Assembly: GCA_964589375.1 (NCBI GenBank)
Contig: CAZPSA010000001.1
Location: 1,410 to 65,409 of the forward strand
Reading direction: 5' to 3'
Source: an uncultured Clostridium sp.
GTDB lineage: Bacteria > Bacillota_I > Bacilli_A > RF39 > UBA660
DNA: 64,000 nt
Part shown: piece after piece, positions 27,101 to 41,982 of the stretch
Layout of the letters: each line of letters begins with the position of its first letter
How positions within the stretch are numbered: position 1 is the first letter of the stretch
Made by a program: the position numbers and the translations under genes
Notes under the pieces: model-generated
Told to the model about the DNA's origin: nothing
Database searches by the model: none
Seen by the model: only the letters and a program-made list of their open reading frames with translations

Positions 27101-27320
27101 CTTTTGCTCCTCTATTAATCCTTCTTCCTATTTCATTCCACTCTTCAAATGAATGACAAATTTCTAAATCATTTCTTTGAATAATTACTTGACATGCAGT
27201 ATGAAGAGTAATGTGTGGATTAATTGATGTAAAGTGATAAAAAGATTTAAGCTTTGAACTATTCCTTAGCATTTCATCTATTAGTTCATTTCTTTTGCTT
27301 AATCTTTTCACTTCATTCAT
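18114..27320 (-). CDS. 3068-aa polyvalent conjugative-element protein: ArdC-N-like, N6-adenine DNA methyltransferase, SNF2/DEAD helicase, repeat modules, AEP prim-pol and a PriCT-like tail
   Basis: The methylase (aa ~520-800) has VLESSMGTGNFF (SAM motif I) and VVGNVPFG (motif IV). The helicase (aa ~1285-1860) has HHVVGAGKTYT, FIDEAHFYKN, CGAGTN and EQREGRIIRQG. The prim-pol (aa ~2765-2935) has CCIDLDKC and SISGNGVHLF. Confidence 0.9.
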   Translation of the reverse strand: MNEVKRLSKRNELIDEMLRNSSKLKSFYHFTSINPHITLHTACQVIIQRNDLEICHSFEEWNEIGRRINRGAKGIPYYDTNGYKRYLFDSSDTNGKEEFTRYYYPLERLLIGLDEINNTNLINDERSDYRKIHNGIKNYLENDNYLANDLTRNKSLIEGISYILYSKTDKPNQDNIYINPLPYSLNENANLFKEIYFKAHEIQKEIEEAYLSSLEKEEEINVDEIHEEFLDDFEQESFDEEIESIDINEEIENEKILVKEEHSSNKSKSKQTGIKDRKKKELTLFDVSSEKIKEEKLIEWGIKHGSGFVDGRLRIYYEYHKNPTLSDFAKFIKDEYGIGGMSDSTHNLWNDSKGLYLENKDKEHEDDNAKVFLKWNEVAVHVADLIDEDNYLTADEKDRLDMFIFIKENPDINEKIKSLVEEKIEEAVDNTTSLSWVTYFDEFGEDEDFVRKHLDLYLYHLEDSIKVADVEVMEDGIDVVYYGDYCKNVEFEDEEEIQNFEEEHVEISEVEEIVEDEELGGLKQRFKNNIEAIKLQKRLYEENRNPTDEERKVLLKYVGFGGLAQAFDEFNEKWKNEYIELKSLLSDVDYERAKGSVLNAHFTSREVIEGIYKSLEKFGVEGSNKVLESSMGTGNFFRFMPEVISNDSKLYGVELDNITGRIAKKLYPNVNIQIKGFEDTTFPNNHFDLVVGNVPFGGYSVYDKDYNKYNLLIHDYFIAKSVDKVRPGGIVAVITSKGTMDKQSQNARKYIADRAELIGAIRLPNTAFKKLAGTEAVADILFLKKRDTPINATLENTEWLGVSKNEFGYELNNYFINHKEMILGTLKEDFGLYGAIDLTVIPDERELSTALDDAVKLLPQDIFEKSINEELIESNNERIEVDYDLKNLCFKVVDNKLYQRVNDEMEEVEIPKTPKDALIRITKMIELRKSLRNILDLQISGCSDEVLATEQVELNQKYDEFVKKYGFLNSSVNTKLFKDDGDSSLLFASEFISSDKKTATKADIYFKRTIRPYTKITSINDSFEALQISKNELGRVDISYIESLTKKDYDTIIKELGSSIFRDPELITIDDKYSGFVTSEEYLSGNVKKKLITAFNYKNSYPNFGFEKNVKALEEVQPPPLKATEIAVRLGASWIDTKIYKDFLVETLDIPYYYASGIDVFYNKHDSSYRVDLTANYVRGFRSQKIASLSTSRASAFRLFEDSLNLKSTSIYDTIEVDGKEKRVLNKEETIAAREKQNRIKEMFKEWIFKDPERRDMLEETYNNLFNQIRLPTYNGSYLRFPEMNPTITLKDHQKDAVHRIITSGNTLLHHVVGAGKTYTICAAAMKLRQYGLAKKPMIAVPNHLVRQWANEFRTLYPNANLLIATKEDLEKTNREKFVSKVALGDWDAVIIAQSSFAKIPISTERQIRKIKEEISKIEASIRNGWETDGVPRGAIKNLERIKKSRETSLKKLLDEGKKDSVLIFENLGVDYLFIDEAHFYKNLFLYTKMNNVSGISTAASQRATDLQLKCEYINELHKGDKGIVFATGTPISNSMTEMYTMQTYLQPRTLQELGITYFDGWAADFGETITSLEMSPSGQGYRAKTRFAKFTNLPELLTLYRSFADVKTKDMIKLDVPNQVRNVITLKPSENIIELAEEIADRAEAISGGGVDPHIDNMLKVTSDGKKLALDPRCFDPNAVDEMGSKLNECAYRVSEVYKKTNHFKGTQLIFCDLSTPKCAFDDYEYGKDFDVYNDLKYKLTILGIPKEEIAYIHEANSDLQKQALFSKVNEGEIRVLIGSTEKCGAGTNVQKRLIALHHLDTPYRPSDMEQREGRIIRQGNQNSEVEIYTYVTERTFDSYSYQILENKQRFISQVNNGNLTIREADDIDEATLTFAEIKAITAANPKIKRKMELDTEIARLKVLEGQYKKNLYLLQDKIRRDLPLAISKQELYLENLKKDISLLNSLYKPDSEDFLINVKGINYTDKKEGTKALGDALMVAKDDEVIAEYNGFKISLNPIILLTQERSITLSASGRYTMDIGTSSIGNMTRLDNFFKEFPLREDRVERKLEQLKKDLSDAKVQVDMPFEHKEKLEELQIELNEINAELDLNKSDDVVISEDENNNYRGVIIEDIKESEIIEPFDKVASLRVNILPSYEVSQDEMNKYGYSWNGMLPIKVNSVDVMRKLGLDVYKLYPNDTESKLDDDSDIENHDGLFGIEKPEWIEFLKSNEAKDYFNTRLDFITTSSEVVNEMLDYMEEDHTKFLDVNANEKEYIKRFVLPLGESSSDDKKRFGKVLADEFSKRIEDSFGKGVILQFGFSNEEIRNELISNLDNEELKTYLSKNNFYKEMVSHKVINEYEELRKDILSKGNDEAFKESYKIHFFTELKDFLTSEENNLDDKEYEMLFRENVPILSSLFDYYLKEEYSSIENYSEINNLVVSYNEKYNKNLVKEEENIMQENHEVESEKKNWLKINVPTSALIRKYDNHSFLRMPTSHEEYGGYTYNMFNSRIKQGRMITDLQSDSRELCLELIVEENEQIILRNGDKEKVVTGLEFEKLVRGTMDKDYETPKSYNEMVTLSVPVESRIGKYESSSLFVLPNYSKYKGQDFYIPNRFVEDDKLKDGRLKISLPDNFSISVKNRETNEITKITPFDLIEEMDSSNIDDYRKSNTNWNVVSVNKEARLGVYEESSLFKMPNGSYQGFCYYLPNKLIKDTSDTHLRINLQDDMEITLKNKSNEQIILKVDEFISEVGGKDLKDYESGLVRPSSVTNNAFVEREKVLRANVPEEMKKMPNWVVVRTRENETKGRLDKFLIDVHTGKFARSDDPTTWTTFDEACKYARENNCETLAYALDGKNGICCIDLDKCITKDGSYSPLTKEVLFASDNTYAETSISGNGVHLFGKTNGMDLRTFSRNGDLEFYQKSHFIAMTGDLINEESNSLRNFDALPIKKILEATCDKRTPFMGCGEGVEGLSLMSDRDVVEKAINSKHGETFKALYEGQDLQNNHSNSDMSLMNRLAFWCNGDKEQMIRIFATSGLFRPGKSPDYYESTAIKAIRDTTERFRPTKTEAPKVVKPSGSFFGKGS
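19116..19967 (-). repeat. Three tandem ~85-95-aa protein modules inside the polyvalent gene
   Basis: The three copies start WLKINVPTSALIRKYDNHSFLRMP..., MVTLSVPVESRIGKYESSSLFVLPN... and WNVVSVNKEARLGVYEESSLFKMPN... Each ends in a ...I.L.N....E.I....EF/FD... strand pattern. Confidence 0.75.
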
Positions 27321-27704: not shown

Positions 27705-28148
27705 TTAAAAATTTTTTAAATTTTTTTTCAAATTATTTAAAGCTCTCTCTAAAGTAATAGAAATACAAGCTTCTGATACTCCTAATTCTATTGAAACTTC
27801 TCTTTGTGTCTTTTCTTCAAAGAATATTTTAATAATAATTTCTTTTTGTCTTGGTCTTAATTTTTCTATTGCTTCATGTAATTTTTTATTAAATTCTTCT
27901 TTTTCTAATTCTTGTTGTTCTATTAATTCAATTTCATCTTCACTTATACTTGTATCAGCAAGTTCAAATCCATACTTTTGATTTAAGTATTCTAATGATA
28001 CAGTTCTTGCGTGATATGTTTTATCTTGTTTAAGTTGTCTTTCAAACTCTTTATTTAACTCCTCAATTAACTTTTCTTCATCAATATTTTCAGTTTCAAT
28101 TTCAATTGAATATTTAGTAGTCACTTTATAAATAACTTTCTTTTTCAT
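27705..28148 (-). CDS. Sigma-70 family (ECF-like, region 4) sigma factor, first gene of the ICE operon
   Basis: LRPRQKEIIIKIFFEEKTQREVSIELGVSEACISITLERALNNLKKNL is a typical sigma region-4 HTH. This parallels the sigma-like Orf7 of Tn916-type elements. Confidence 0.7.
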   Translation of the reverse strand: MKKKVIYKVTTKYSIEIETENIDEEKLIEELNKEFERQLKQDKTYHARTVSLEYLNQKYGFELADTSISEDEIELIEQQELEKEEFNKKLHEAIEKLRPRQKEIIIKIFFEEKTQREVSIELGVSEACISITLERALNNLKKNLKNF

Positions 28149-28389: not shown

Positions 28390-28566
28390 TATTTAATCCC
28401 TCCTTTGTAATCTTATTTAAAAAGATTATAAATTTTAAGATTTTAATATTAATGCGTATAATCTAAAACTATACTGCATATAATATTAGTTTATACACTA
28501 ATATTATAACATTAAGACAAGTAAAATATTTGTTATTTTTTATCGTTTAATTTATAATTTTTTCTT

Positions 28567-29034
28567 CTATTTATAATAATTATTAAAAATAATATCTTGT
28601 GGACTAAAAATAGATATATTTTTTTCAATAAACTTTCCTTTACAATGGTTATAATTTGCATAATCATAAAGATATGTATTTACTGCAATTTCACTAACAG
28701 GAAATAAACTTATAAGTTCTATTGGAATCATTACCTTAATTGTATTTTGTTCATAATTTATAATAATATCTTTATTATTTGAATCCTCTGAAATCTCCTC
28801 TAATAAATTATCTATTACTCCATCATCATCTGGAATTAATGTGTTCTTAGAAATAATTATATTACCTTTTTTTATATAAAGCGATATATTATATATATTC
28901 ATAAATTCAATATCAATTATTTCAATACAAATTATATTATTTCTAATAGTATCTTGTTCAAACATTATTATAAAATAATCCGTATTTAAGTCATAATTAA
29001 TTAAATAATTTACTATGTTTTGACATTTTTTCAT
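28567..29034 (-). CDS. Hypothetical 155-aa cytoplasmic protein, last gene of the RiPP cluster
   Basis: ORF track entry, 2 nt after the ABC gene. It has no TM segment or recognisable motif. Confidence 0.5.
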   Translation of the reverse strand: MKKCQNIVNYLINYDLNTDYFIIMFEQDTIRNNIICIEIIDIEFMNIYNISLYIKKGNIIISKNTLIPDDDGVIDNLLEEISEDSNNKDIIINYEQNTIKVMIPIELISLFPVSEIAVNTYLYDYANYNHCKGKFIEKNISIFSPQDIIFNNYYK

Positions 29035-29036
29035 AT

Positions 29037-30779
29037 TTAATCATACTCCTTTTTTTGTATATTAAATAATTTATAAAAATATCCTCTCTTAGAATATAAT
29101 TCATTAAAAGTTCCCATTTCAACAATTTCACCGTTGTTTAAGACAATAATTTTATCTGCTTTTTTTGTGAATCCAAGTCTATGAGATATTGCTATTATCG
29201 TTGAATCACTTTTTTCTTCATAAAAATTTTTATAGAACTCAATTTCATCTTTTGGATTCATTGAAGATGTTGGTTCATCTAAAATATAGATTTGCGATTT
29301 TTCATCAAGTAGAGACCTTGCAATTGATATTTTTTGCCATTCTCCCATAGACAAAGATTGTCCATTTTCATTAATATTACCTATCTCAGTATACAAACCA
29401 TTAGTAAGAGATTGGACTTTGCTACTAAGTTTAACACTATCAAGACTTTTCATTATTTTTTCATGACTATAATCATTTTTATACAAATTAATATTATCAA
29501 TTAATTTGCTTTGAATATAGAAAATATCTTGTGTTACTATATTAGTAACAGACCTTAAAAATTTTTGGTCATAAATTTCTTCATCACTTACAACTGTTAT
29601 TTTCCCAATAAAATTATCATAAATTCCACTTAAAACATTCGCTAAAGTAGTTTTCCCACTTCCATTTTCTCCAACAATTGCTATTTTTTCGCCTTTTTTA
29701 ATAATTAAATCAATATTCTTTAATACATAATTTTCCATATTCGGATATTTATAACTAATACCTTTTAATTCAATATAAGAAAATACATTTTTATTGTCTT
29801 CAAATATATCTTGTTGATATTCTAAGACTTCGTTTATTTTATTAATATACTCTTTGTTAACTCTGTAATCTGACATTGAAAAAGTAAATTCAATAATAGA
29901 AGATCTTAACCAGAAAATCAATGATAGTATTGTTCCGATATAGCCTAACTCTAATTTTTGATTTATTATATTATAAATAGTTGTTAAAATTATAATTGCG
30001 CTAATTATTCCATAAAAAATATCAGGTAAAATAATATATTTATATTGAAAATTTGTATTTTTTTTCCCTAATTTCACATATTCTTTTTCAGTTTTATCGA
30101 GTTTTTTTTCTATATACTTCAATGAATTATTAACAAATATATCTTGATACGCAAATAAATTCTTTGTTATAGTACTAATATAATTTTTTCTCTTTCTTAT
30201 TAAGTCAAACTCTTTATTATTGAAATTTATTTTATCACTTGCTTTATATGAAATATATCCATAACATATTAATATTGGAATCAGAGTGAATGCAAATATT
30301 ATATTAATTTTTGATAATAAAATAAAATAAATGATAAACTGAAAAAGACTTCTTAATATATCTACTGATTTATAAATTAAATTATCAGATACAGAACCTA
30401 TATTACTTTGTGCTAAATATAATTTATTTAAAGTATTATAATCTAAAAAGTAATTATAGTTTATGTTTTTTACATTGTCATTGAGTTTTTTTTCACAACA
30501 TATATTAATTTTACTACTATATTTTTTTTGTTTAATAGATAATAAATAGTTTAGAAAAGAATTTGCAATAATCAATGATATATATATTAATACTATTTTA
30601 ACATTAAAAATCATTTCTTCCTTATTATTTTCATTAATAGAATTTAATATATTAATGAATTTTTCATTTATTGATATATTATAAAAAGTAAATAATGAGA
30701 TTATAATTGTACAAATGAATAAAAATATATATTTGCGATGTTCTAGCGCTTTAAAACCAATTTTTTGTATTTTTTTCAT
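29037..30779 (-). CDS. ABC exporter, fused permease plus ATPase (half-transporter B)
   Basis: Six hydrophobic segments are followed by Walker A GENGSGKTT, signature LSMGEWQK and Walker B IYILDEPTS. The start was moved to the ATG at 30779, preceded by the SD GGAGG. Confidence 0.85.
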   Translation of the reverse strand: MKKIQKIGFKALEHRKYIFLFICTIIISLFTFYNISINEKFINILNSINENNKEEMIFNVKIVLIYISLIIANSFLNYLLSIKQKKYSSKINICCEKKLNDNVKNINYNYFLDYNTLNKLYLAQSNIGSVSDNLIYKSVDILRSLFQFIIYFILLSKINIIFAFTLIPILICYGYISYKASDKINFNNKEFDLIRKRKNYISTITKNLFAYQDIFVNNSLKYIEKKLDKTEKEYVKLGKKNTNFQYKYIILPDIFYGIISAIIILTTIYNIINQKLELGYIGTILSLIFWLRSSIIEFTFSMSDYRVNKEYINKINEVLEYQQDIFEDNKNVFSYIELKGISYKYPNMENYVLKNIDLIIKKGEKIAIVGENGSGKTTLANVLSGIYDNFIGKITVVSDEEIYDQKFLRSVTNIVTQDIFYIQSKLIDNINLYKNDYSHEKIMKSLDSVKLSSKVQSLTNGLYTEIGNINENGQSLSMGEWQKISIARSLLDEKSQIYILDEPTSSMNPKDEIEFYKNFYEEKSDSTIIAISHRLGFTKKADKIIVLNNGEIVEMGTFNELYSKRGYFYKLFNIQKKEYD

Positions 30780-30789
30780 ATAACCTCCA

Positions 30790-32607
30790 TTATATATCAT
30801 ATAACTCTTTTTGCATATTATATGTTTTATAATATTCACCTTTAAGCTTTAATAATTCTTCATGAGTTCCATTTTCTATGATTTTCCCTTCCTTCATCAT
30901 ATATATTTTATCTGCAATTTTTGCAAACGGAATTCTATGAGAAATAATTATAGTGGTACAATATGTTGATATAGTTTTAACAAAATCCAAAATTTCTTTT
31001 TCTTTTTCTGGATCTATTGAAGCTGTAGGTTCATCCAAAATAAAGATTTGCCTATTTGAAGCCATCGCTCTAGCCAAAATAATCTTTTGCCATTCACCTC
31101 CACTTAAATCAACTCCATCAGAAAAAAGATTCTTATCCATATTTGTATATAATCCATTGGGTAATTTTTCTATTATACTCTTGATCAAAAAATTTTCTTT
31201 CACTTCTTCAATTTTTTCGTTGTTATTAATATTCTTTACATCACTAATCAAAATATTTTCATATAATTTAAAAGAGTATTTATAATAATCTTGAAAAGCA
31301 CATCCATACATATGATTAATTTCAGTTTTATCCAATTTCTTTCCGTTTAAAAAAATTTCTCCACCATAATTCTTTAAAATTCCTAATATTATTTTTGATA
31401 AAGTAGTTTTACCACTTCCATTTTCTCCTAAAATACTTATAACTTCTCCTTTATGTATATCGATATTAATACCATCTAAGGCATTTACATCTCCATTAAT
31501 ATATTTGTAATTAATATTTCTTAACGATAAATGTTGAAATTCTATATTATCATTTACCTCTAATTTGTGATCATTATCATTTAAAAGTATATCATATTCA
31601 TCAACATATAAAGAACTTTTTACAGTCTTAGTAATAGTTTTTGAAAAATAAGTCAATGACGATAATGAAGATTTATAAATAGTAAATAAATATATAGCAA
31701 CTGACAAATTAATATGTTCGTTAATATTCATATAAACTATAAAAAACATGCCTAAATAAATTAAAATCATTCTAATAATATCTAATTTATATTTAGCTTT
31801 TTTTTCTTTAATTTTGTTTTTTAAGTACAAATCATTATATTCGTCAATAAGTTCACTACACTTTTCATATATTTCATCTTCAATATTTAGGGATTTTAAT
31901 TTAAAATTATTTTTATCGTTAAAAATCAAAGAATTATAATAATCTTTCTTCCTTTGTATAGGAATTATATTCTTTTCAAATTCAATAACTTTTTTATTAA
32001 TTTTCAAATCATATATTGTTCTAAAAACTAAATATAAAGCTGAAATAATGCCCAAAGTAATACTATATCTAAATACTAATATAACATATATTATTTTACT
32101 TGAAAACAACATTATGGTAGCATATAACAAACTTCTAAAAAATCTTACAATCTCATTTTTTTTGTTATAACAAAATTCTATTTTAGAATAATCTTTTTGA
32201 TTCAACATACTATCATATTTAATATTACTTATGTGATTATTCATCATTTTTTTAGTTAATTTCGATCCAAATAAACTAAAATAATAAATATCTAAATATT
32301 GAGTAAATAATGATATGATAGGTTGAAATATAAAACTAGAAAAACTGATTAGTATCGTTATAATGATAAGTTCCATACCTATGCTATAAGATATATTTAA
32401 TTGTTCAATTAATATTGTTTGTAAAATTGGAAATAAAAAACTAGTGGCTGTTAAAATAATGTACAAAACTATCCATAAAACACTCAGTAGAGGTGCATAT
32501 TTAAATGATAATACTATGATACTAAATATATTCTTTAATACTTTCTTTAATTTTTTCATAACATATTTATTAAGAAAATTCAATTTCCTCAAATCGTATT
32601 GATGCAT
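30790..32607 (-). CDS. ABC exporter, fused permease plus ATPase (half-transporter A)
   Basis: Motifs are GENGSGKTT, LSGGEWQK and IFILDEPTA. The true start may be the internal Met at 32559. There is no C39 peptidase domain. Confidence 0.85.
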   Translation of the reverse strand: MHQYDLRKLNFLNKYVMKKLKKVLKNIFSIIVLSFKYAPLLSVLWIVLYIILTATSFLFPILQTILIEQLNISYSIGMELIIITILISFSSFIFQPIISLFTQYLDIYYFSLFGSKLTKKMMNNHISNIKYDSMLNQKDYSKIEFCYNKKNEIVRFFRSLLYATIMLFSSKIIYVILVFRYSITLGIISALYLVFRTIYDLKINKKVIEFEKNIIPIQRKKDYYNSLIFNDKNNFKLKSLNIEDEIYEKCSELIDEYNDLYLKNKIKEKKAKYKLDIIRMILIYLGMFFIVYMNINEHINLSVAIYLFTIYKSSLSSLTYFSKTITKTVKSSLYVDEYDILLNDNDHKLEVNDNIEFQHLSLRNINYKYINGDVNALDGINIDIHKGEVISILGENGSGKTTLSKIILGILKNYGGEIFLNGKKLDKTEINHMYGCAFQDYYKYSFKLYENILISDVKNINNNEKIEEVKENFLIKSIIEKLPNGLYTNMDKNLFSDGVDLSGGEWQKIILARAMASNRQIFILDEPTASIDPEKEKEILDFVKTISTYCTTIIISHRIPFAKIADKIYMMKEGKIIENGTHEELLKLKGEYYKTYNMQKELYDI

Positions 32608-34051
32608 AAGGATTTTTATCTAATATCTCTAGTGTTTTCATCATTCTGTTATATACATATTTTTTCTCACTAATACAATCATGTTCATTTATATCTTTCC
32701 AACATTTTCTACATAATCTAACAGCCCAGCATTTATTACATTTTACATTTGATTTTTCAAATTTTCTTACAAAAGTAAATAATTTTTCATAGTTAAACCC
32801 ATTTTTAATATTTCCAAATGTAAGCATCTTTTTATTAAACAATATCTTTTCGCAAGGTGAGAAATCTCCATCAATGGTTACAAACAATCTTCGTTGACAA
32901 ATTGTGCAGCATCCTGTAGGCCAAAACTTATTATCATTTTTTAATTTTATTGGTGAATTTACAAAATATGGCGTTAAAACCTTATCTATTGTTTTAATTA
33001 TATCAGATTTTTCTAATTTTTTATTTGACATGTCTATTGATGAAATATAGTCATAATATTTTTTCAAAAATCCTTCAGAATATGTAATATCATCCACATT
33101 ATAAGTTATTTTGTTATTTTCTATTTCTTTCAATAAATTTTTTGCACAATTTTCATCATATCCTTTAACTATATCGGTAAAACTATGATAGTTATTAGGA
33201 AAAGTATCCTTAAAGAATTTTAAAACATGTTCTTGATATTTTAGCTTAGGAATGACAGAATTAAATTGTATTTTTTCATAGAATTCTGGATACTTATCTT
33301 TTATATTCCTTAAATTTTTCATTATAATATCATGAGTTGGTTTATTATTAACTAGAACTCTTCCAGCATCATGTATCCATTTCGGCCCATCTAAACTAAC
33401 TAAGATTGAAAATTTTTCTTTGACTAAAAATTCAAGTATGTCATCTTTCAATAGAATACCATTAGTTGTTAATCCATAATTAATATTCTTTTGAGGATAT
33501 TTTTCCCTTATATAATTTACGCATTTTTTTATTAGTTCAAATGCAAGTAATGGTTCACCACCATAAAATGATAATGTCACTTGATTATTATTTACTGATT
33601 GTTTCATAAAAAAATCAATACTATCCAATGCTATATCATCTTTCATCATTTTATTTTCGTATCGTGAATCCTTCAAATACATTTCAGAAAATACACAATA
33701 TTTACATCTTAAATTACATTGGCTAGTAACTTCTAATATCAAATGTTTCATATCATGTTGAATTACATCTTTTAAATTTTTATTATCATATTTATATTCT
33801 GGTTTACCAAAATTATAACCCACCAAAATTTTATAATTATTTTCAAGCATTAAATCAGCTAAAAATTTGTACCCTTTTAAATGTTTTTCAACAATTTCAT
33901 TTGGTATTTCTTGTCCTACTTCTATTTGACTTCTTGCTTCTACTATTAATTGATAACTATCCTTGGGAACTCTTATATATTCATGACTAAAAGTATCATA
34001 AATGAAATAATTATTATCAATTTTAAAAACTTCACATATTGGTAATCTCAT
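32570..34051 (-). CDS. Radical SAM / SPASM-domain peptide maturase
   Basis: The radical-SAM motif is EVTSQCNLRCKYCVF (CX3CX2C), followed by SFYGGEPLL. The C-terminal Cys-rich SPASM region is GCCTICQRR...SPCE...VKCNKCWAVRLCRKCW. It lies immediately downstream of the two precursor genes. Confidence 0.85.
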   Translation of the reverse strand: MRLPICEVFKIDNNYFIYDTFSHEYIRVPKDSYQLIVEARSQIEVGQEIPNEIVEKHLKGYKFLADLMLENNYKILVGYNFGKPEYKYDNKNLKDVIQHDMKHLILEVTSQCNLRCKYCVFSEMYLKDSRYENKMMKDDIALDSIDFFMKQSVNNNQVTLSFYGGEPLLAFELIKKCVNYIREKYPQKNINYGLTTNGILLKDDILEFLVKEKFSILVSLDGPKWIHDAGRVLVNNKPTHDIIMKNLRNIKDKYPEFYEKIQFNSVIPKLKYQEHVLKFFKDTFPNNYHSFTDIVKGYDENCAKNLLKEIENNKITYNVDDITYSEGFLKKYYDYISSIDMSNKKLEKSDIIKTIDKVLTPYFVNSPIKLKNDNKFWPTGCCTICQRRLFVTIDGDFSPCEKILFNKKMLTFGNIKNGFNYEKLFTFVRKFEKSNVKCNKCWAVRLCRKCWKDINEHDCISEKKYVYNRMMKTLEILDKNPYASIRFEEIEFS

Positions 34052-34095
34052 TGTTTCTCCTTTCTAGGTATACTCTAAAGCGGGAATAGTGTTAA

Positions 34096-34236
34096 TTATC
34101 TGCCGTAGTTTCCTTCATCACTTTTTTGTCCATCTTCGTATTGATCATCGTCATTTGTACCCGTACAAATACAACCACAAGCAAAGACATTTTTGTTAAT
34201 TTTTTTTATAATTCCGTATATTTTTTCGTTCTTCAT
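34096..34236 (-). CDS. RiPP precursor peptide A2 (46 aa)
   Basis: The SD GGAGAG is followed after 8 nt by ATG. The peptide is MKNEKIYGIIKKINKNVFACGCICTGTNDDDQYEDGQKSDEGNYGR. The track shows it only as the tail of a longer 76-aa ORF. Confidence 0.7.
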   Translation of the reverse strand: MKNEKIYGIIKKINKNVFACGCICTGTNDDDQYEDGQKSDEGNYGR

Positions 34237-34249
34237 AAAAGGCACTCTC

Positions 34250-34396
34250 CTATGCATAAGCTCCAGAAGATAAATAATTACTTCTTGTATCACTTGTTGG
34301 CTTCCCCTTTGAATAAGAGCATGCACATGTGCAACTACATCCCATCAATGAAACCACATTATTTTTATATTTTTTTACTATTCCATATACTTTCAT
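34250..34396 (-). CDS. RiPP precursor peptide A1 (48 aa)
   Basis: The SD AGGAG is followed after 9 nt by ATG. The peptide is MKVYGIVKKYKNNVVSLMGCSCTCACSYSKGKPTSDTRSNYLSSGAYA. It shares the YGI(V/I)KK..(K/N)NV leader and CxCxC core with A2, and is not in the ORF track. Confidence 0.7.
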   Translation of the reverse strand: MKVYGIVKKYKNNVVSLMGCSCTCACSYSKGKPTSDTRSNYLSSGAYA

Positions 34397-34446
34397 TTAT
34401 ATAATCTCCTAACTTTAGTTTTTCACTTTTCCCGCTTTTTAAGTAT

Positions 34447-36075
34447 CTAAGGTAGTATATATTTCAAATATTGAATATCATGAATAATAGGAATATTCAA
34501 TATTTTTGAATTATTTTGAATTTCCTTTTTTATAGTATTTCTTTCCTTTTGGGTATCTATAAATAATCTTCTATATTTATTTTCTCTAAGGTCATAAATA
34601 TCATATAAATTATTTGTAAGATAAATCGCACTAACGTTTTTACCTGTTATACAATTTATAAATCCAACAAAACATTGTAATTTTTCAGCATTATCATTTA
34701 AATTTGCAACAATAACTACACGATCTGCTTCTATCTCTAAAAAGTTCTTGATGTTATCTTTATAATCAGACGTATCTTTATTATTCCTTATTAGATTATT
34801 ATAATAAAATATAAATTCGCGATTAATTGCTTCATTAAATTCATCATTTTTATAATGTAAAAGTTCCATTCCTTTGTTTGTAGATACAATTACCTTATTA
34901 TCATTATGTTCATAAAATTCTTTTTCTACTTCGTATAAATCATTCATAAAGCCAGTATGAACAAACACTATTTTTTCTTGATTATTTTTAGAATAATCAT
35001 AACTCTTATTAAAATATAAAATACCCTTATTATCTATAACATTATTACATATTTTTGTTAATGTGAATTTATCTAATTTAAAATCACCAAATAAAAAGCA
35101 ATCCTTCTTTAGATTAATAAATTCCATTAATTGATTGTATATGTCAACATTTTTTTCAAATGATAAAATAATGATATTTTTATAATTTTTTATATTATCA
35201 ATTGAATAACAATCAATATCTGTTATTAGGCTGTTGATGCACACTTCCGAATTCATTTCATCCCCTATAACTATATTTGAAAGAAAAATTTTTGATACAT
35301 TATATTTAATGTTAATATTTGACTTTAAATAATTTTTTAATATATTATAAGTATATCTATCATGAATATATATACATGTTTCTTCTCTTAAAATAGTACC
35401 TACTTTATTAATTAAACCATAATTGTAATTCGATAACATGGCTATTATTTCATCATATTTTTTAGTCGTTTTAAGATTTTTCGCTATGATGGACCCCACA
35501 TATGCTGTTGCATAACTACTTCCCATTGTTGTAACTGTCTTTTCACCGATTTTAAAATACCATTTTCCATTTGCAATTATATTATCATTTTCAAAATCAT
35601 ACAAAATATTATTATTAAAACCAGGTCCTGATTTTACAGATATTACATTCTTAAATTTTGCGGGTAATAATGTATTTTCAAAATTTTGTGATGCTACGAT
35701 TATTATACCATTTAAACATGCTTTTTCACATATAATCTGTAATTTTTTAATTAATTCTCCATCTTCAATATTATTTTCTTTAAATCCACAGCTAATATTT
35801 AAAACATTAACTTTCTTCTCAATACACCATTCAATAGCAGCAATTAATTCTTCAATTGTACAAGTTAATTCATCGTGAAATACTTTAACACTATATAATT
35901 CTACGTTTTTATTGAAATTTTTATAAATATTTGCTACTAATGTCCCATGATTAATCAAATCAACATCATAATCATCTTCAAATCTATTTATTTTCTCTCC
36001 GTCATAAAAGATGGTTATACCATTAACTATATCTTTTATTCCACTATCAATAATTGCTACTTTTATGTTTTCCAT
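34447..36075 (-). CDS. Cytoplasmic S8 (subtilisin-like) serine peptidase with a ~350-aa C-terminal extension; a likely leader or follower peptidase
   Basis: The catalytic triad motifs are VAIIDSGI (Asp), NHGTLVANI (His) and MGSSYATAYV (Ser). There is no signal peptide. Confidence 0.75.
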   Translation of the reverse strand: MENIKVAIIDSGIKDIVNGITIFYDGEKINRFEDDYDVDLINHGTLVANIYKNFNKNVELYSVKVFHDELTCTIEELIAAIEWCIEKKVNVLNISCGFKENNIEDGELIKKLQIICEKACLNGIIIVASQNFENTLLPAKFKNVISVKSGPGFNNNILYDFENDNIIANGKWYFKIGEKTVTTMGSSYATAYVGSIIAKNLKTTKKYDEIIAMLSNYNYGLINKVGTILREETCIYIHDRYTYNILKNYLKSNINIKYNVSKIFLSNIVIGDEMNSEVCINSLITDIDCYSIDNIKNYKNIIILSFEKNVDIYNQLMEFINLKKDCFLFGDFKLDKFTLTKICNNVIDNKGILYFNKSYDYSKNNQEKIVFVHTGFMNDLYEVEKEFYEHNDNKVIVSTNKGMELLHYKNDEFNEAINREFIFYYNNLIRNNKDTSDYKDNIKNFLEIEADRVVIVANLNDNAEKLQCFVGFINCITGKNVSAIYLTNNLYDIYDLRENKYRRLFIDTQKERNTIKKEIQNNSKILNIPIIHDIQYLKYILP

Positions 36076-36084
36076 AACCTATCC

Positions 36085-36978
36085 TTATATTTCTTTTATT
36101 TTATTATTTAAATACTCAATATTTCCAGTTAAATCATCTGTACGAATAAAAGTATATTTATTTATTAAATAATCAAGTTCAATAGATTTTATAAAATCAG
36201 ATTTTTTTAAATCAAAATTATAAAGTAAATTATTTTTTATTTTTTTATAACTATTTATTTCTGGATTAAATGAGTTTTCTACACCTTTAGTACAAAAAAT
36301 AATTCCTTTTACAAGTCCCTTTTTACATATATTTTTTACATAATATCTTTCTTTTGTTAAAATCTCTTCATTATCAATATATTTGGGTTTTATCCCTCTT
36401 AATAAAGATTTTGTCTTTTCATTGGCATTGATTCCGCTAAATATACCCTCTACATAGATCGAATTATCTTTTTTATATATAATACACATGTCATCACTAA
36501 TTAAATTATAACCTTTATTTAAAATCATTCCTAAACTTATTGTGGACTTTCCAGCATGTTTCTCGCCAACAATTAGAAATGCTTCACCATTTTTTTCAAT
36601 TGCTGTTGCATGTAATATAATTAAATCTAATTTATTTTTATAATGTTCAGCTATTTTATTCATTACATATCTTCTATAACTATAATAACTATCATTATCA
36701 AGTGTAAGCATATAATTATCCTTATTATTTCTCAAAATAATATTATCACAACTAACATTATAGTCTAATATAATATTTTTTTTGAATACATCTATTTTAT
36801 TTTTATACATTATTTTTATATTCATTTTATCAATATTACTATTAGTATCGTGATATAATTCTTTTTTTAAAAAGTTATATATATTTAATGAATTTGTTTC
36901 AATTTTAAATTTGTCATCATCTATTATAAAGTAACATTTCTTCATTTTTAAATTCCTTATATTTATTATATTTTTCAT
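36085..36978 (-). CDS. HPr-kinase/phosphorylase-related kinase (HprK C-terminal-domain-like)
   Basis: LHATAIEKNGEAFLIVGEKHAGKSTISLGMILNKGYNLISDDMCII has the P-loop and following DD typical of HprK-related kinases seen in peptide-modification clusters. The start may be the internal Met at 36945. Confidence 0.65.
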   Translation of the reverse strand: MKNIINIRNLKMKKCYFIIDDDKFKIETNSLNIYNFLKKELYHDTNSNIDKMNIKIMYKNKIDVFKKNIILDYNVSCDNIILRNNKDNYMLTLDNDSYYSYRRYVMNKIAEHYKNKLDLIILHATAIEKNGEAFLIVGEKHAGKSTISLGMILNKGYNLISDDMCIIYKKDNSIYVEGIFSGINANEKTKSLLRGIKPKYIDNEEILTKERYYVKNICKKGLVKGIIFCTKGVENSFNPEINSYKKIKNNLLYNFDLKKSDFIKSIELDYLINKYTFIRTDDLTGNIEYLNNKIKEI

Positions 36979-37984
36979 TTATTGTATCATCTTCATCATA
37001 ATTTAATAATTTAAATTTAAAAAGTTTTTTTAATATATTACAATCACTAAATTCAGTACAACTCATATTACAAATATAATTATATTCACAATTTTTACAT
37101 TTTTTATTATTGCATTTTCCATTTAATGAGCATTTTTTGATCATCCCCAAATTATCAATATATATATACTCACTATTAAATCCACAATCTATATTTGGAT
37201 ATATACTTGGCCAATTTAGTACTTTTATATAATTTGAATAGTTATAACTATATTTCAAAATATACATTGAAATATTTATATATGAATCAACAAGTAGCTT
37301 AGTGTCAACAACCTGATTGATTTCATGAAATATAAATGGAGAAAAAATTAATCCTATATTATTATTAATACATTCGATACAAATTTTTTCCAAATCATTA
37401 TTTATTCTTGGTAAAACAGAAATTTTATGGTTTAATAAATCATTTTTATTTTCTATTATACTTTCAATTTTTTCAACATAAAAAACAATATTGAAAATAT
37501 TAAAATACTTAAATTTTTTTAAAATTTCAAAATTTTCAATTTTTGTGAAAATTGTTAAACTTGATGAAATATCATATATTTTATTAAAATAATTTTCCAA
37601 TAATTTTATATTTTCAAATTTTTCAATGTAAATAAATATTTTATCAACCAAACTACTATTTGCTATATTTTTTATACAATTATACACATTTTTTATTTCA
37701 TATGTTTTTTTTGTTAAATCTACAATGATTTTTTTCTCTAATGCTTTTGAAGATACAATGTAATCATCCAGATTGCTATTTTTAATATTTAAAAATTCTT
37801 CTTCAAATAAATATTCTAATGCTTCATTATATAATTCATTAGAATATTTATATTCTTTTAACTCAGCAATCAATTTTGCTATTTCATCGCTAATCAAAAC
37901 ATATTTATGATTTTTTAAATTCATCAATAAATATATTTCATTATCTATTTTTGACATTCTTACATCTTTACTCAAATAATACAT
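36917..37984 (-). CDS. PqqD/RRE-like N-terminus plus SPASM-type Cys-rich C-terminus, lacking the radical-SAM CX3CX2C motif
   Basis: The N-terminus SKIDNEIYLLMNLKNHKYVLISDEIAKLIAELKEY is RRE-like. The C-terminus is CGFNSEYIYIDNLGMIKKCSLNGKCNNKKCKNCEYNYICNMSCTEFSDC. No CxxxCxxC occurs anywhere in the 355 aa. Confidence 0.55.
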   Translation of the reverse strand: MYYLSKDVRMSKIDNEIYLLMNLKNHKYVLISDEIAKLIAELKEYKYSNELYNEALEYLFEEEFLNIKNSNLDDYIVSSKALEKKIIVDLTKKTYEIKNVYNCIKNIANSSLVDKIFIYIEKFENIKLLENYFNKIYDISSSLTIFTKIENFEILKKFKYFNIFNIVFYVEKIESIIENKNDLLNHKISVLPRINNDLEKICIECINNNIGLIFSPFIFHEINQVVDTKLLVDSYINISMYILKYSYNYSNYIKVLNWPSIYPNIDCGFNSEYIYIDNLGMIKKCSLNGKCNNKKCKNCEYNYICNMSCTEFSDCNILKKLFKFKLLNYDEDDTINEKYNKYKEFKNEEMLLYNR

Positions 37985-37986
37985 AT

Positions 37987-38682
37987 CTAATCCTCATCAA
38001 ATAATATCTTAAATAATTTTTCAGGGCATTCAAGCATCATTTTATATATAACAAAGTGTGATGTATCTTTATAATCCATGCGTTTTACCTCATCATCTAT
38101 ATATATAAAATCAGCATTTGGGTAAGACATTATAATAGGAGAATGCGTTACAACTATTATTTGGGTATCTTTTTGTTTTGACAGTTCATTTATTATACTT
38201 AATAATCTGAGTTGATTTTGAGGAGATAAAGCATTTTCCGGCTCATCTAACAAAAATATTCCTTCTTTAAAAGAATCAAATAATTCTAAAAAGCTTTCTC
38301 CATGAGACAATTCACTAAATTTTTTTCTATAATAAGCCAAAATTTGCGGATCGGATTCAATATAATTATAGTAAGAATTAAACGTATCACTTCTAAAATA
38401 AAAACCTTTTTTAGTTTTATATGACCAAGATAATTTTATGTCCTGTATTTGTCTTAAATTTTCTGTTGATTTATAATTACTATTTTTGTTTCCACCTAAT
38501 ATATTAAAACCAACATTGTCAGCTATATATTTTAAAATTGTTGATTTTCCACAACCATTTTCCCCAGATATTATTGTAACATTATTCTTAAACTTAATGC
38601 TAAAACCATCTTTGAATATTTTAATATTATATGGATAAGTATTTTCATTTTTCGATTCAACTGCTATTTCTTTAAGAATCAT
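37987..38682 (-). CDS. Stand-alone AAA/ABC-type ATPase (no permease domain)
   Basis: Walker A is ISGENGCGKSTILKYIA, Walker B is IFLLDEPENALSP, and the H-loop is VVTHSP. Confidence 0.7.
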   Translation of the reverse strand: MILKEIAVESKNENTYPYNIKIFKDGFSIKFKNNVTIISGENGCGKSTILKYIADNVGFNILGGNKNSNYKSTENLRQIQDIKLSWSYKTKKGFYFRSDTFNSYYNYIESDPQILAYYRKKFSELSHGESFLELFDSFKEGIFLLDEPENALSPQNQLRLLSIINELSKQKDTQIIVVTHSPIIMSYPNADFIYIDDEVKRMDYKDTSHFVIYKMMLECPEKLFKILFDED

Positions 38683-40201
38683 ATATGTTATTTCCTTTCT
38701 TTATAATTACTGGCTGCTCAGTATATGATATATGTTGAAGACTATTTGTAATTTTATTACCATCTATCTCATGTATAATGAAATTTAGTCCTACATTTGA
38801 GTTATAATTTATATCTAACTTTTCCATATCAATTTCAAATTCAAAGCTACCATTTTTTATATTTGGTTTAATATATTCTATTATTTTTGCTCTCTTTTCT
38901 CTTGAATAATCATATTTTACTTCATCTCTTCCAAGCATAGTTTCAGTCATAAATAATTTATCCTTTTTGATCCTTATCATTAATGGATAAAATGGTTTAA
39001 TAAATTCATTAAATGAATTTTTAAAATATAATTGAATATAAATTGCAAAATGGTCTGGTCTTTTATTATTATAGAAATCTAAATTTAAATAAAACTTTTT
39101 ATCAATGACTGTCAAACTATAATTTATGGGTTTATCCCCTAAATTTTTGATAAAACTTTCGTTGTTATTTAGATAATTTTTATTTGATGCTCCAATTAAG
39201 AACTCACTATAAGTATATTTACTTAAAAAATCAATAATTTCATCTTTAAAAAAATATCTATAAATCAAAGGGATATTCCATTTTATTCTACCAATATCTA
39301 CTAAGTCATGTTTCTTATAGTCAATTAATTCTTTTGGAAAAAAAGATAAAAATTCTATGATCCATTCTTCTTGATATATTTCATACATTCTCAAAAAAAC
39401 TAGTCTAATTTTATGAATCAACTTATATTTATGTGCATAATCTAGTATTTTATTCCAATCTAATAAATTATAATTTTTCTTAACAAAACAACATATATCT
39501 ACTAGATATTGCAAAATATATCTTTTTGAAAATTGTAAGGAAAAAATATTTTCAGTAAAATAGTAATAATAATTAATTAATAATAAAAATGTATTATTAA
39601 GGTCAAATGTTTTTACTTCCATTTTATCATATTGTATAATTTTTTGTTCACAATTTATATTATAAATCTGAGTTTTTTCACTATTCTTTAATTCTATTAC
39701 CATCTTTTGGTTGTCAAAAATAATTGGTAATGAAATTTCACCATGTATATTTTCTAAATTTTCATTAAAATCAAAATAACATTTGAATTTTTGTTTTATA
39801 ATTGAAATAAATTTTTGCTTTTCATAAGAATCATTTATAACAATATCTATATCAGAATACATTCTTTTATTTTGCTCACCATATATCAGAGTATTTAATA
39901 TTTTCCCTTTATATATACTATATTTTATATTATTCTCATTTAATAATTTCACAACTTCAAAGAAAAATTCATCGTATGTTTTATAAAATGACAGATACTT
40001 ATTTTTTATTCCCGTAATTACATTTTGATATGGTTTAAAAATATCTAAATCTATTATTTTTTCATAATAATGAAAAAATAATTTATGTTCAATTAGAATA
40101 TCAATAACTTCATCACAATCTATATATTTAATATCATCACCTAAACAATTTATATTGTCCTTAATTAATGAAATTACAAATTTATGATTGATATTTAACA
40201 T
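38672..40201 (-). CDS. Pol-beta-superfamily nucleotidyltransferase-like protein (the uncharacterised NTase family common in RiPP clusters)
   Basis: YKGKILNTLIYGEQNKRMYSDIDIVINDS fits the pattern hG-x(9-13)-DxD. It is the first gene of the cluster, at 509 aa. Confidence 0.55.
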   Translation of the reverse strand: MLNINHKFVISLIKDNINCLGDDIKYIDCDEVIDILIEHKLFFHYYEKIIDLDIFKPYQNVITGIKNKYLSFYKTYDEFFFEVVKLLNENNIKYSIYKGKILNTLIYGEQNKRMYSDIDIVINDSYEKQKFISIIKQKFKCYFDFNENLENIHGEISLPIIFDNQKMVIELKNSEKTQIYNINCEQKIIQYDKMEVKTFDLNNTFLLLINYYYYFTENIFSLQFSKRYILQYLVDICCFVKKNYNLLDWNKILDYAHKYKLIHKIRLVFLRMYEIYQEEWIIEFLSFFPKELIDYKKHDLVDIGRIKWNIPLIYRYFFKDEIIDFLSKYTYSEFLIGASNKNYLNNNESFIKNLGDKPINYSLTVIDKKFYLNLDFYNNKRPDHFAIYIQLYFKNSFNEFIKPFYPLMIRIKKDKLFMTETMLGRDEVKYDYSREKRAKIIEYIKPNIKNGSFEFEIDMEKLDINYNSNVGLNFIIHEIDGNKITNSLQHISYTEQPVIIKKGNNIYDS

Positions 40202-40438
40202 AAATCCTTAAACTCCTCAACTTTCCTTTTTTTTCAAAAATATACTAATTATTCTAATATAATAAATTATTAATTCTAAGTAGTTAATTTTACTAACAAT
40301 AATTTATCTAAAATATCTATTAAACTAAGCTTATAAATTTTTATTTTATCATTTTCATACATCGTAATTTATAACTCAAAAATTAATTTATTAATTTTGG
40401 AACCTTTTAAATTGATTTATATATATATATATGAAAAA

Positions 40439-41572
40439 TTATTTATATTTTTCTAATTCATTTATTTTGTCTAATTGTTCCCATGGAAGATTATCTTTTC
40501 CAAAATGACCATAGTTAGTAGTCAATTTATAAATTGGTCTTCTTAAACCCAAATGATTAATGATTCCTTTTGGGCTTAATACAAATGTTTTTCTAATAGC
40601 ATCAATTATTTCTAAATCAGATACTTTTGCAGTTCCGTAAGTTTTAACCATTATTGAAGTTGGTTCTGATACACCAATTGCATAACTTAATCCAATTTCA
40701 ATTTTTTCAGCAAAACCAGCTGCAACTAAGTTTTTAGCGATATATCTTGCCATATAGGCACCACTTCTATCTACCTTAGATGGATCTTTACCACTAAACG
40801 CTCCACCACCATGTCTTGCATATCCACCATATGTATCAACAATTATTTTTCTTCCAGTTAATCCACTGTCTCCTTTAGGTCCACCAATAACAAATCTTCC
40901 TGTTGGATTAATGTAGTATTTAGTGTTTTCATCTAATAATTCATTAGGTAAAACAGCTTTAATAACGTTATTTAATACAAATTCTCTTACTTCTTCAATT
41001 GTAACATCTTCACTATGTTGAGTTGAAACAACAACATTATCAATTCTTACAATTTTATTATTATCATATTCTACGCTAACTTGAGCTTTTCCATCAGGTC
41101 TTAAGAAATCAACCATTTTACTTTTTCTACATTCTGTTAATCTTCTTGTTAATCTATGTGCAAACATAACAGGTGCTGGCATATATTCTGGTGTTTCGTT
41201 ACTAGCAAATCCAAACATCATCCCTTGATCTCCGGCTCCATCATCAGAGTTTACTCCCATAGCAATATCTGGTGATTGTTTGTCTAAAGCAACAAGTACG
41301 GCTAAATTTTCGGCGTCAAATCCTAATTTTCCTCTGTTATATCCAATTTCATCAACTGTTTCTCTAACAATTTTTTGAATATCCACATTAGCTTTTGATG
41401 TAACTTCTCCTATAACCATTACTAATCCTGTAGTAGCACATACTTCGCAAGCTACATGAGCATTTTTATCTTGCTCTAAATAAGCATCTAAAATACAATC
41501 AGAAATTTTATCGCAAACTTTATCAGGATGTCCTTCTGTAACAGATTCCGATGTAAATACTTCCTTTATCAT
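40439..41572 (-). CDS. metK: S-adenosylmethionine synthetase
   Basis: [51 protein letters not shown] and other canonical MetK motifs are present. Confidence 0.95.
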
Positions 41573-41574
41573 AA

Positions 41575-41982
41575 CTACTCATTAATAATTACACTAGAAC
41601 CAATGTAAAATATATTACTAATTTCACCAGTTACATTAGTTATAGTTTGTTGATTTTCAATTATGGTAATAACAACTGTACCAACATTGTTTTCATCGGC
41701 ACTACACAACAAATAATTTGTTGATTCATTAAGATCAACAACTAAAATTTCACATGTCCCAATTATTTCTTCATTTCCACGAACGCAATTTGTTAAATAT
41801 CCTATTTTTGTCTCATCATCAATAGAAACATAGAATTCATTATTACTTAATGATAAAACATCAACTCTATCAGGGTTTTCATCTTTAACAATTGTTACTC
41901 TAGCAGCATTTACTTTAATTGTACCAATGTATAATGTAAAAACTAAAACTAATAAAAATATTTTTAAAATTCTTTTTTTCAT
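41575..41982 (-). CDS. Small secreted protein (signal peptide), 2 nt upstream of metK
   Basis: [26 protein letters not shown] is a signal peptide, and the SD AGGAGGAGAAT precedes the ATG. Confidence 0.6.

Follow-up and report, generated by a model that had tools for sequence, protein, structure and literature searches.

Two tandem precursor genes directly upstream of a radical SAM maturase

The DNA analyzed here, referred to as the window, is a stretch of 64,000 nucleotides (nt) from an uncultured Clostridium sp. (contig CAZPSA010000001.1), and this study concerns two small genes in it, A1 and A2, which precede a gene for a radical S-adenosylmethionine (rSAM)/SPASM peptide maturase. We consider it likely that A1 and A2 are the substrates of this single maturase in a mobile 11.7-kb operon for a ribosomally made peptide with post-translational modifications (RiPP), and that the system makes a two-peptide thioether RiPP. 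A sequence-only reading of the window had proposed two tandem small open reading frames (ORFs) with Shine-Dalgarno sites directly upstream of the rSAM gene, and both their coordinates (Table 1) and their translations were confirmed. The Shine-Dalgarno sequence of A1 (AGGAG) lies 9 nt 5' of the ATG, and that of A2 (GGAGAG) lies 8 nt 5' of the ATG and overlaps the stop codon of A1. The end of A2 is separated from the start of the rSAM gene by 44 nt.

The leader of A1 comprises approximately residues 1 to 18/19 and is followed by the core, GCSCTCACS plus the tail SYSKGKPTSDTRSNYLSSGAYA. A2 has a leader of the same type and the core ACGCICTGTNDDDQYEDGQKSDEGNYGR. A1 exemplifies the A1 type, with four Cys residues and a predicted core net charge of +2, and A2 the acidic A2 type, with three Cys residues and a predicted core net charge of -5. 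The predicted cores are 28 to 30 amino acids (aa) long with a tail of 22 aa in each, and the C-termini read ...GAYA in A1 and ...NYGR in A2. The pattern C.C.C was present in only 2 of the 978 ORFs of the window, A1 and A2 themselves. The local BLOSUM62 alignment score of A1 and A2 was 62, as opposed to 21.7 ± 4.5 for shuffled sequences, none of which reached 62 in 20,000 trials; the score of the leaders alone was reached by 4 of 20,000 shuffles. The conservation of the N-terminal region and of the alternating Cys block, described earlier from the letters, holds, with a shared leader of ~19 aa. The 'YGI' leader motif of that description is present as well, but its Tyr is polymorphic (Y or F) in A2. 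We also observed a tail motif, S-D-x(1-3)-N-Y, common to A1 (TSDTRSNY), A2 (KSDEGNY) and a canonical precursor of the CLI_3235 family at L002:7742-7930 (KSDKNY).

A1 and A2 are real paralogous genes under purifying selection. Between the window and a copy of the operon on a metagenome contig (L086), the pair showed 14.5 synonymous versus 6.5 non-synonymous differences, and the ratio of non-synonymous to synonymous substitution rates (dN/dS) was 0.12 for A1 and 0.06 for A2, compared to 0.07 to 0.17 for the surrounding enzyme genes. The length of both ORFs and their order were unchanged in all copies of the cassette, and both ORFs are predicted by gene callers in public assemblies. The amino-acid changes were conservative, with Y/F exchanges at the 'YGI' of A2, D/E exchanges in its tail and a small number of altered positions midway along the tail of A1.

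A perfect 13-bp inverted repeat, AAATATTGAATAT-N14-ATATTCAATATTT, was found at 34466-34505, inside the 3' end of the upstream S8 protease gene and 70 to 110 nt 5' of A1. It was not conserved in L086 (two mismatches in the second arm), and its RNA fold was ordinary (z = -0.95). The stretch from A2 to the rSAM gene contained no attenuator-like hairpin (z = -0.68), and promoter and terminator scans were uninformative, the DNA being too AT-rich.

Relatives of the pair and the conserved two-type design

We searched 1.84 billion representative proteins exhaustively with HMMER using a profile of A1 and A2 (threshold E < 0.001), and only four relatives were found. An S8 protease gene adjoins all four, and a homologous rSAM gene (34 to 42% identity) adjoins them where the contig extends far enough (L098-L103). 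The sequence-only reading had staked its proposal, tandem precursors for the adjacent rSAM maturase, on the occurrence of homologous small ORFs next to related maturases. Homologous small ORFs were found in L096/L097 and L098-L103, in the latter beside homologous maturases, and the proposal is thus supported.

In L096/L097, the S8 gene is followed by a 46-aa A1-type peptide (…GCACTCTC…EEYLSSGDYA) and, after 3 nt, a 44-aa A2-type peptide (…GCGCQCKGTDDETQRKDG…GRYG). L103 contains an S8 gene, a 56-aa A1-type peptide, a 44-aa A2-type peptide (…CVCSGTNDEDQARDG…GSYGD), a maturase with 42% identity to that of the window and an ABC transporter gene. The orthologues of A1 are thus P0126 (L096) and the 56-aa ORF of L103, and those of A2 are P0125 (L096) and P0128 (L103). 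The loci L098-L102 encode an ATPase, a 341-aa protein without assignment, an HPr-kinase (HPrK)-like protein (32% identity), an S8 protease, two tandem 51-aa precursors, a maturase (34% identity), an ABC transporter and an NTP_transf_5 protein. Their precursors are two tandem A1-like paralogues, and integrase, recombinase, PcfJ and toxin-antitoxin genes flank the loci. A more distant locus in a metagenome-assembled genome of Clostridia (L036) has the same accessory set with a single precursor. The HPrK-like, ATPase and NTP_transf_5 genes were present in every locus complete on that side, namely the window, L086/L094, L036 and L098-L102.

Three lineages, those of the window, L096/L097 and L103, have a tandem pair of one A1-type and one A2-type peptide, which is the conservation of two types that characterizes two-peptide bacteriocins. 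The identity was 42 to 48% among A1-type and 45 to 48% among A2-type peptides, as opposed to ~30% across the types. On these identities, the duplication that gave rise to A1 and A2 predates the divergence of the lineages, and the pair has been maintained since. The A2-type tail motif C.GT(N/D)D(D/E)xQ..DG...G.YG and the A1-type end YLSSG.YA were each conserved. All nine peptides of the subfamily share the leader core [YF]G[IV][IVL][KR][KM], a Cys block starting with G/A-C that is directly preceded by a hydrophobic or aromatic residue, and an invariant Tyr 2 to 3 residues from the C-terminus. None of the subfamily peptides matched an NCBIfam model. The maturases of the three lineages scored on TIGR04068 reached 314 bits (window) and 291 to 294 bits (L103 and L098).

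Other searches added few relatives. A word-indexed search with the A1/A2 profile returned A1 itself, a 92%-identical variant and P0124, a 40-aa protein that has only the A1 leader, and nothing else; the same kind of search with the HPrK-like protein gave one match, at 92% identity. A scan of genome contigs with the single maturase gave no match, and a scan with a maturase alignment found 80 distant CcpM-like loci, of which only L036 has the HPrK and nucleotidyltransferase set. Two metagenome scans with HPrK alignments found no copy in the first and one further copy (94%) in the second. P0124 lies on an ENA contig (L095:1063-1185, matching window 34347-35457) in which the homology to the window ends inside A1 after codon 17, and the A1 leader is joined to unrelated sequence, with an ORF containing a Zn ribbon behind it. 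This fusion represents either an insertion into A1 or an assembly chimera.

An in-frame TGA was observed in the A2-type gene at L096:1004-1138 and L097:972-1106, at a position that is Trp in the database protein P0125 (…VNKWVYG…). This TGA means either that Trp is decoded from it, under a Mollicutes-like genetic code 4, or that the gene copy is a pseudogene. In the window, by contrast, TGA is a stop codon and ends 14 of the 64 long ORFs.

The maturase and the CcpM family

The maturase contains the CxxxCxxC motif at C112/C116/C119 and SPASM cysteines at the C-terminus. Its closest curated family was CcpM (TIGR04068; 314 bits, cut-off 500), and further scores were 208 bits for RumMC, 208 for the lachnocin rSAM protein, 160 for PapB, 148 for QhpD and 133 for the SCIFF maturase. 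RumMC, PapB, QhpD and the SCIFF maturase form Cys thioethers, as CcpM presumably does, and lachnocin is uncharacterised. An AlphaFold (AF2) model with 40 homologues (pLDDT 77) showed a confident β3-α3 domain at residues 6 to 71, which resembles the RiPP recognition element (RRE), the leader-binding fold of such enzymes. Both by sequence and by fold, its closest counterparts in the PDB were structures of the thioether synthase CteB (5WHY/5WGG). The locus presents an arrangement typical of rSAM thioether RiPPs, an rSAM/SPASM maturase with an RRE adjoining a Cys-containing precursor.

We compared the pair with canonical CcpM loci (L002-L006, L014, L018 and others). The precursors of these loci match TIGR04065/PF27803 ('CLI_3235 family bacteriocin precursor'), with 31 to 44 bits for those of L002, L006 and L018 at a cut-off of 26, and their maturases exceed the TIGR04068 cut-off, with 616 bits for P0003. 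An identification of TIGR04065 as Clo7bot was rejected, as TIGR04065 is the CLI_3235 family and the Clo7bot maturase is TIGR04334. The canonical precursors consist of a basic leader, most often of exactly 19 residues, an alternating-Cys block and a polar tail of 17 to 33 residues; the leader had 19 residues in 6 of the 13 canonical-type precursors tabulated and ~18 to 19 in A1 and A2. Their tails may be Ser/Thr-rich (20 to 45%) or acidic, and the Ser/Thr-rich ones are as frequent there, in loci that lack a kinase gene. A hidden Markov model (HMM) of 15 canonical precursors ranked A1 first among the 978 ORFs of the window (E 2.4e-4), with the Cys block contributing most of the signal.

Neither A1 and A2 nor their relatives had a meaningful match in local Pfam and NCBIfam scans. 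TIGR04066 (peptide maturation system protein) and TIGR04069 (ACP-like) had no match among the cassette proteins, and both are present in the canonical locus L002 and in the SacP23 cluster (PMC10731318). SacP23 of Paenibacillus polymyxa, from a CLI_3235/TIGR04068 cluster, showed activity against Gram-positive bacteria on expression in B. subtilis, with cross-links not established (PMC10731318). In the literature, CcpM otherwise appears only as an annotated family (PMC9062424).

The operon and its genes

From 40201 down to 28567, every gene lies on the same strand with overlaps or with gaps of at most 50 nt, in the order NTP_transf_5 protein, ATPase, 355-aa protein, HPrK-like protein, S8 protease, A1, A2, rSAM/SPASM maturase, two ABC exporters and 155-aa protein (Table 1). 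The G+C content is 19 to 24% across the cassette versus 25 to 30% in its surroundings.

Table 1. Positions of the precursor genes, the cassette and other genes in the window
Feature	Position	Strand	Remarks
A1 precursor gene	34250..34396	minus	48 aa; ATG start, TAG stop
A2 precursor gene	34096..34236	minus	46 aa; ATG start, TAA stop
Radical SAM/SPASM peptide maturase	32570..34051	minus	493 aa; Pfam Radical_SAM, Fer4_12, SPASM; N-terminal RRE-like domain
Conserved 11.7-kb cassette	28538..40238	minus	93.4% identity with metagenome contigs L086 and L094; genomic context differs
NTP_transf_5 (PF14907) nucleotidyltransferase	38672..40201	minus	509 aa; Pfam 3.2e-12; SDIDIV motif
AAA_15/AAA_21 (ABC-like) soluble ATPase	37987..38682	minus	231 aa; Pfam
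Unknown protein	36917..37984	minus	355 aa; Cys-rich C-terminus (…KKCSLNGKCNNKKCKNCEYNYICNMSC…); no family match
HPr-kinase-like P-loop protein	36085..36978	minus	297 aa from first ATG; Walker A GEKHAGKST
S8 subtilisin-like protease	34447..36075	minus	542 aa; Pfam Peptidase_S8 2e-12
ABC exporter half-transporter 1	30790..32607	minus	transmembrane and nucleotide-binding domains, without C39 peptidase domain
ABC exporter half-transporter 2	29037..30839	minus	without peptidase domain
Unknown protein, last cassette gene	28567..29034	minus	155 aa; no family; no predicted transmembrane segment
Sigma-70 region-4-like protein	27705..28148	minus	147 aa; Pfam Sigma70_r4; cluster membership uncertain
SNF2 helicase/methyltransferase giant	18114-27320	minus	conjugative element; 3068 aa, NrS-1 polymerase HBD domain
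ArdC + zincin MPTase	16316-17974	minus	conjugative element
VirD4 CD1115-type coupling protein	11809-14025	minus	conjugative element
VirB4/TraG-like ATPase	5857-8487	minus	conjugative element

The S8 protease, the presumed leader peptidase, consists of an S8 domain at residues 3 to 215 and a C-terminal extension of ~320 aa without family match. Its best NCBIfam match was QhpE-like (95 bits, cut-off 165), and a syntenic S8 gene occurs in L036, L098-L102, L103 and the canonical CcpM loci. The HPrK-like protein, annotated in public assemblies as 286 aa with a start at 36945, has an intact P-loop and scored 26.8 bits on Hpr_kinase_C (gathering score 33.3) and 37 bits on TIGR04352 (versus 200). Its matches to HprK_rel_A and ScmC were weak, as was the precomputed match to PF27840 (ScmC). 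Homologues with 32% identity are located at the equivalent position in L036 and L098-L102. The NTP_transf_5 family also occurs in L036 (3.9e-13) and L098-L101, and the SDIDIV of the window enzyme matches the DxD motif characteristic of nucleotidyltransferases. The HPrK-like and NTP_transf_5 proteins are candidate tailoring enzymes. In L036 and L098-L102, the AAA ATPase has homologues with 34 to 39% identity.

The N-terminus of the 355-aa protein may adopt an RRE-like β-β-β-α-α arrangement, in a single-sequence AF2 model that is poor beyond the first ~60 residues; the model was too poor for a fold search. No significant similarity was detectable among the syntenic 355-, 341- and 337-aa proteins of the window, L098 and L036. 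We observed common patterns at window 36917-37984, L036:3703-4716 and L098:6270-7295, N-terminal Y..[SA]K…D…L[IL][MI]N.K and C-terminal KKC…C..C.Y..C…C, and these proteins may represent a fast-evolving RRE/Cys-rich accessory protein. The gene for the 155-aa protein was the fastest-evolving in the cassette, with a dN/dS of 0.43 versus 0.06 to 0.17.

The sigma-like gene lies just outside the block of 93% homology. A homologue (L098:15955-16422; E 4e-9) ends the L098 cluster, and the SacP23 cluster likewise includes a gene for an extracytoplasmic function sigma factor (PMC10731318). The protein may be a regulator of the cluster, or it may be mobile-element baggage.

The cassette as mobile cargo

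Copies of the cassette with ~93% nucleotide identity were found in L001, L086 and L094, together with nearly identical copies in L087-L093. The upstream context is metK in the window versus unrelated small ORFs in L086, and the downstream break in L001, L086 and L094 coincides with an IS3-family element. The first 28 kb of the window is the backbone of a conjugative element on the same strand as the cassette (Table 1), and its type IV secretion coupling protein shares at most 30% identity with counterparts on Bacillota plasmids. The differing upstream contexts, the IS3-family element and the conjugative element thus indicate that the cluster behaves as mobile cargo. A scan of viral contigs gave no evidence of phage carriage, the closest match having 27% identity.

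The region 40439-41982 lies outside the conserved block. The gene directly 5' of the cassette is metK for S-adenosylmethionine synthetase (590 bits, TIGR01034). The next gene specifies a protein of 135 aa whose N-terminus has a hydrophobic stretch (a possible signal peptide), with a weak uridine-phosphorylase-like match.

Proposed maturation pathway and alternatives

In the pathway that we propose, the basic leader of ~18 to 19 residues ([YF]G[IV][IV][KR][KM]..NK..) would be bound by the N-terminal RRE of the maturase, and the N-terminus of the 355-aa protein may contribute to leader binding. The maturase would then link the three to four Cys residues of the G/A-C-x-C-x-C block to acceptor residues of the conserved polar tail through intramolecular thioethers. 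This would yield a hairpin resembling a sactipeptide or ranthipeptide, with the tail as the acceptor half of the core rather than a follower. Hairpin products are known from both sactipeptides and ranthipeptides. Such a role would account for the conservation of the tails inside each type. The S8 protease would release the leader by cutting behind the hydrophobic or aromatic residue found just before G/A-C, predicted as M19 in A1 and F18 in A2, and a hydrophobic P1 residue suits subtilases. The two ABC half-transporters would export the products. Considering the opposite charges of the cores and their conservation as a pair, the A1-type and A2-type products probably function jointly, as a bacteriocin or signal made up of two peptides.

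The HPrK-like and NTP_transf_5 proteins probably add a phosphate-based or a nucleotidyl/glycosyl decoration. One may speculate that the site is the invariant near-C-terminal Tyr or a neighbouring Ser. No peptide ends in Ser; if tailoring occurs, its site must differ from that of the lasso-peptide kinases. As the HPrK-like gene is present in every complete locus of the subfamily, some tailoring of the peptides remains plausible. A bolder proposal, which we hold to be unlikely, is that the peptides are phosphorylated and/or nucleotidylated or glycosylated by the HPrK-like and NTP_transf_5 proteins, at the invariant Tyr or an adjacent Ser, as the first such family of rSAM thioether RiPPs, an obligate cationic/anionic pair spread on mobile elements.

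Several points weigh against the two-peptide thioether pathway. A1 and A2 did not match TIGR04065 even at E <= 10, the precomputed Pfam result for PF27803 was likewise blank, and the HMM of 15 canonical precursors that retrieved A1 gave only a marginal value for A2 (E 0.5). The HPrK-like protein falls under every curated threshold, and a C-terminal Ser, on which known RiPP kinases of this kind depend, was found in 0 of 9 subfamily peptides. A literature search did not find a solved structure for a product of the CcpM family, and the thioether chemistry of the maturase is therefore assigned by homology. The boundary between leader and core and the role of the tail are likewise deduced from the alignments, and the expression, chemistry and activity of A1 and A2 are predicted from sequence.

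The tails could alternatively be mainly substrates of the HPrK-like protein, so that phosphorylation of Ser/Thr (or Tyr), possibly extended by the nucleotidyltransferase, would be the key modification and the Cys block would be secondary. The two tailoring genes accompany the precursors in all complete loci, lasso peptides provide a precedent (PMC8498205), and the C-terminal end has a conserved Tyr or is rich in Ser. In the sequence-only reading, the Ser/Thr-rich tail of A1 was an obvious kinase substrate. This argument is not supported in that form by the comparison with canonical loci, in which Ser/Thr-rich tails are as frequent without a kinase gene. Moreover, the A2-type tail is acidic and poor in Ser/Thr, and the C-terminal Ser of the lasso precedent (PMC8498205) is absent, A1 ending in Ala and A2 in Arg. 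The kinase match is weak, and the most conserved elements are the Cys block and the rSAM gene. Phosphorylation as the central event is therefore possible but somewhat unlikely.

It is quite improbable that the CxCxC block alone is the product, a small Cys-derived metallophore or a cross-linked minipeptide, from which the S8 protease removes both leader and tail, the two serving for recognition or solubility. The central position of the Cys block, the large uncharacterised C-terminal domain of the protease and the strong difference between the A1 and A2 tails are consistent with such a leader-core-follower design. The first of these had been taken earlier to suggest a possible follower. However, long polar tails are universal in the CLI_3235 family, so that a central block is the norm there, and the tails are conserved within the orthologue groups, including their motifs and the invariant penultimate Tyr. 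This conservation fits a modified core better than a discarded follower. The description of the two tails as completely different is correct for A1 versus A2 except for this Tyr at position -2/-3, which is common to both. In addition, the nearest characterised enzyme families need acceptors distal to Cys, of which a seven-residue CxCxCxC offers few. Finally, the DNA has only ~23% G+C and A1 and A2 match no curated peptide family, but the view that they are chance ORFs or non-coding spacer, with the maturase substrate encoded elsewhere, is already effectively refuted by the low dN/dS, the Shine-Dalgarno sites, the significant A1/A2 paralogy and the orthologous pairs beside homologous maturases in independent lineages.

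Comparison with known systems

The two-peptide thioether system of the window shares with CcpM loci the order S8 protease, precursor and rSAM/SPASM maturase, an ABC exporter, and the layout of basic leader, Cys block and polar tail. It differs in that the maturase scores below the family cut-off, the precursors do not match TIGR04065/PF27803 and contain three to four Cys residues instead of five to seven, and two distinct precursor types are paired. In place of the TIGR04066 and TIGR04069 proteins, the cassette has the HPrK-like protein, the NTP_transf_5 enzyme, the AAA ATPase and the Cys-rich 340- to 355-aa protein. By sequence comparison, the system is a rare sister clade and the nearest relative of the CLI_3235/CcpM family and, by curated criteria, not a member. 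CcpM/CLI_3235 is a large catalogued family of rSAM RiPPs without a solved product structure, and the compact substrates of the sister clade, with two natural substrate types per enzyme, would make the cross-link chemistry directly testable.

Maturases of sactipeptides and ranthipeptides such as CteB (SCIFF/thermocellin), PapB (freyrasin), RumMC (ruminococcin C) and QhpD also combine rSAM and SPASM domains with an N-terminal RRE and act on Cys-rich substrates, and the S8 protease of the cassette is similar to QhpE, which cleaves the leader in the QhpD system (QHNDH). However, the window maturase is only 20 to 30% identical to these enzymes, and the CxCxC motif of A1 and A2 resembles neither the CxxxD repeats of freyrasin nor the SCIFF motif. 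The lachnocin family (NF038169 peptide/NF038170 rSAM) is linked to the system through the distant locus L036, whose maturase scored best on the lachnocin model (324 bits) and whose precursor is of similar size and layout. In contrast, the window maturase reached 208 bits at a cut-off of 550, and A1 and A2 did not match NF038169 (cut-off 40). A literature search found no paper on lachnocin, only the NCBIfam entry.

In lasso-peptide clusters, HPr-kinase homologues phosphorylate the C-terminal Ser of the precursor, and a hexose is added to the phosphate (PMC8498205). The clusters of Firmicutes for paeninodin and pseudomycoidin likewise pair an HPrK-like P-loop protein with a putative nucleotidyltransferase within one RiPP operon (PMC8498205). 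The cassette, however, lacks lasso cyclase and B-protein genes, and its similarity to the curated HprK-related families is weak. Within the literature searched, lasso peptides offer the only precedent for the constant association of the HPrK-like and PF14907 proteins, which suggests that this tailoring module can pass from one RiPP class to another.

Should the cationic peptide and its acidic partner act jointly, they would represent a new type of two-component bacteriocin on mobile elements of low-GC anaerobes. The closest analogy for two products is thuricin CD (Trn-α/Trn-β), in which two Cys-containing precursors lie in tandem beside rSAM genes and follow a hairpin-type thioether logic. Thuricin CD has two dedicated rSAM enzymes and a CxxxCxxxC spacing, whereas the window has one maturase, a CxCxC spacing and cores of opposite charge.

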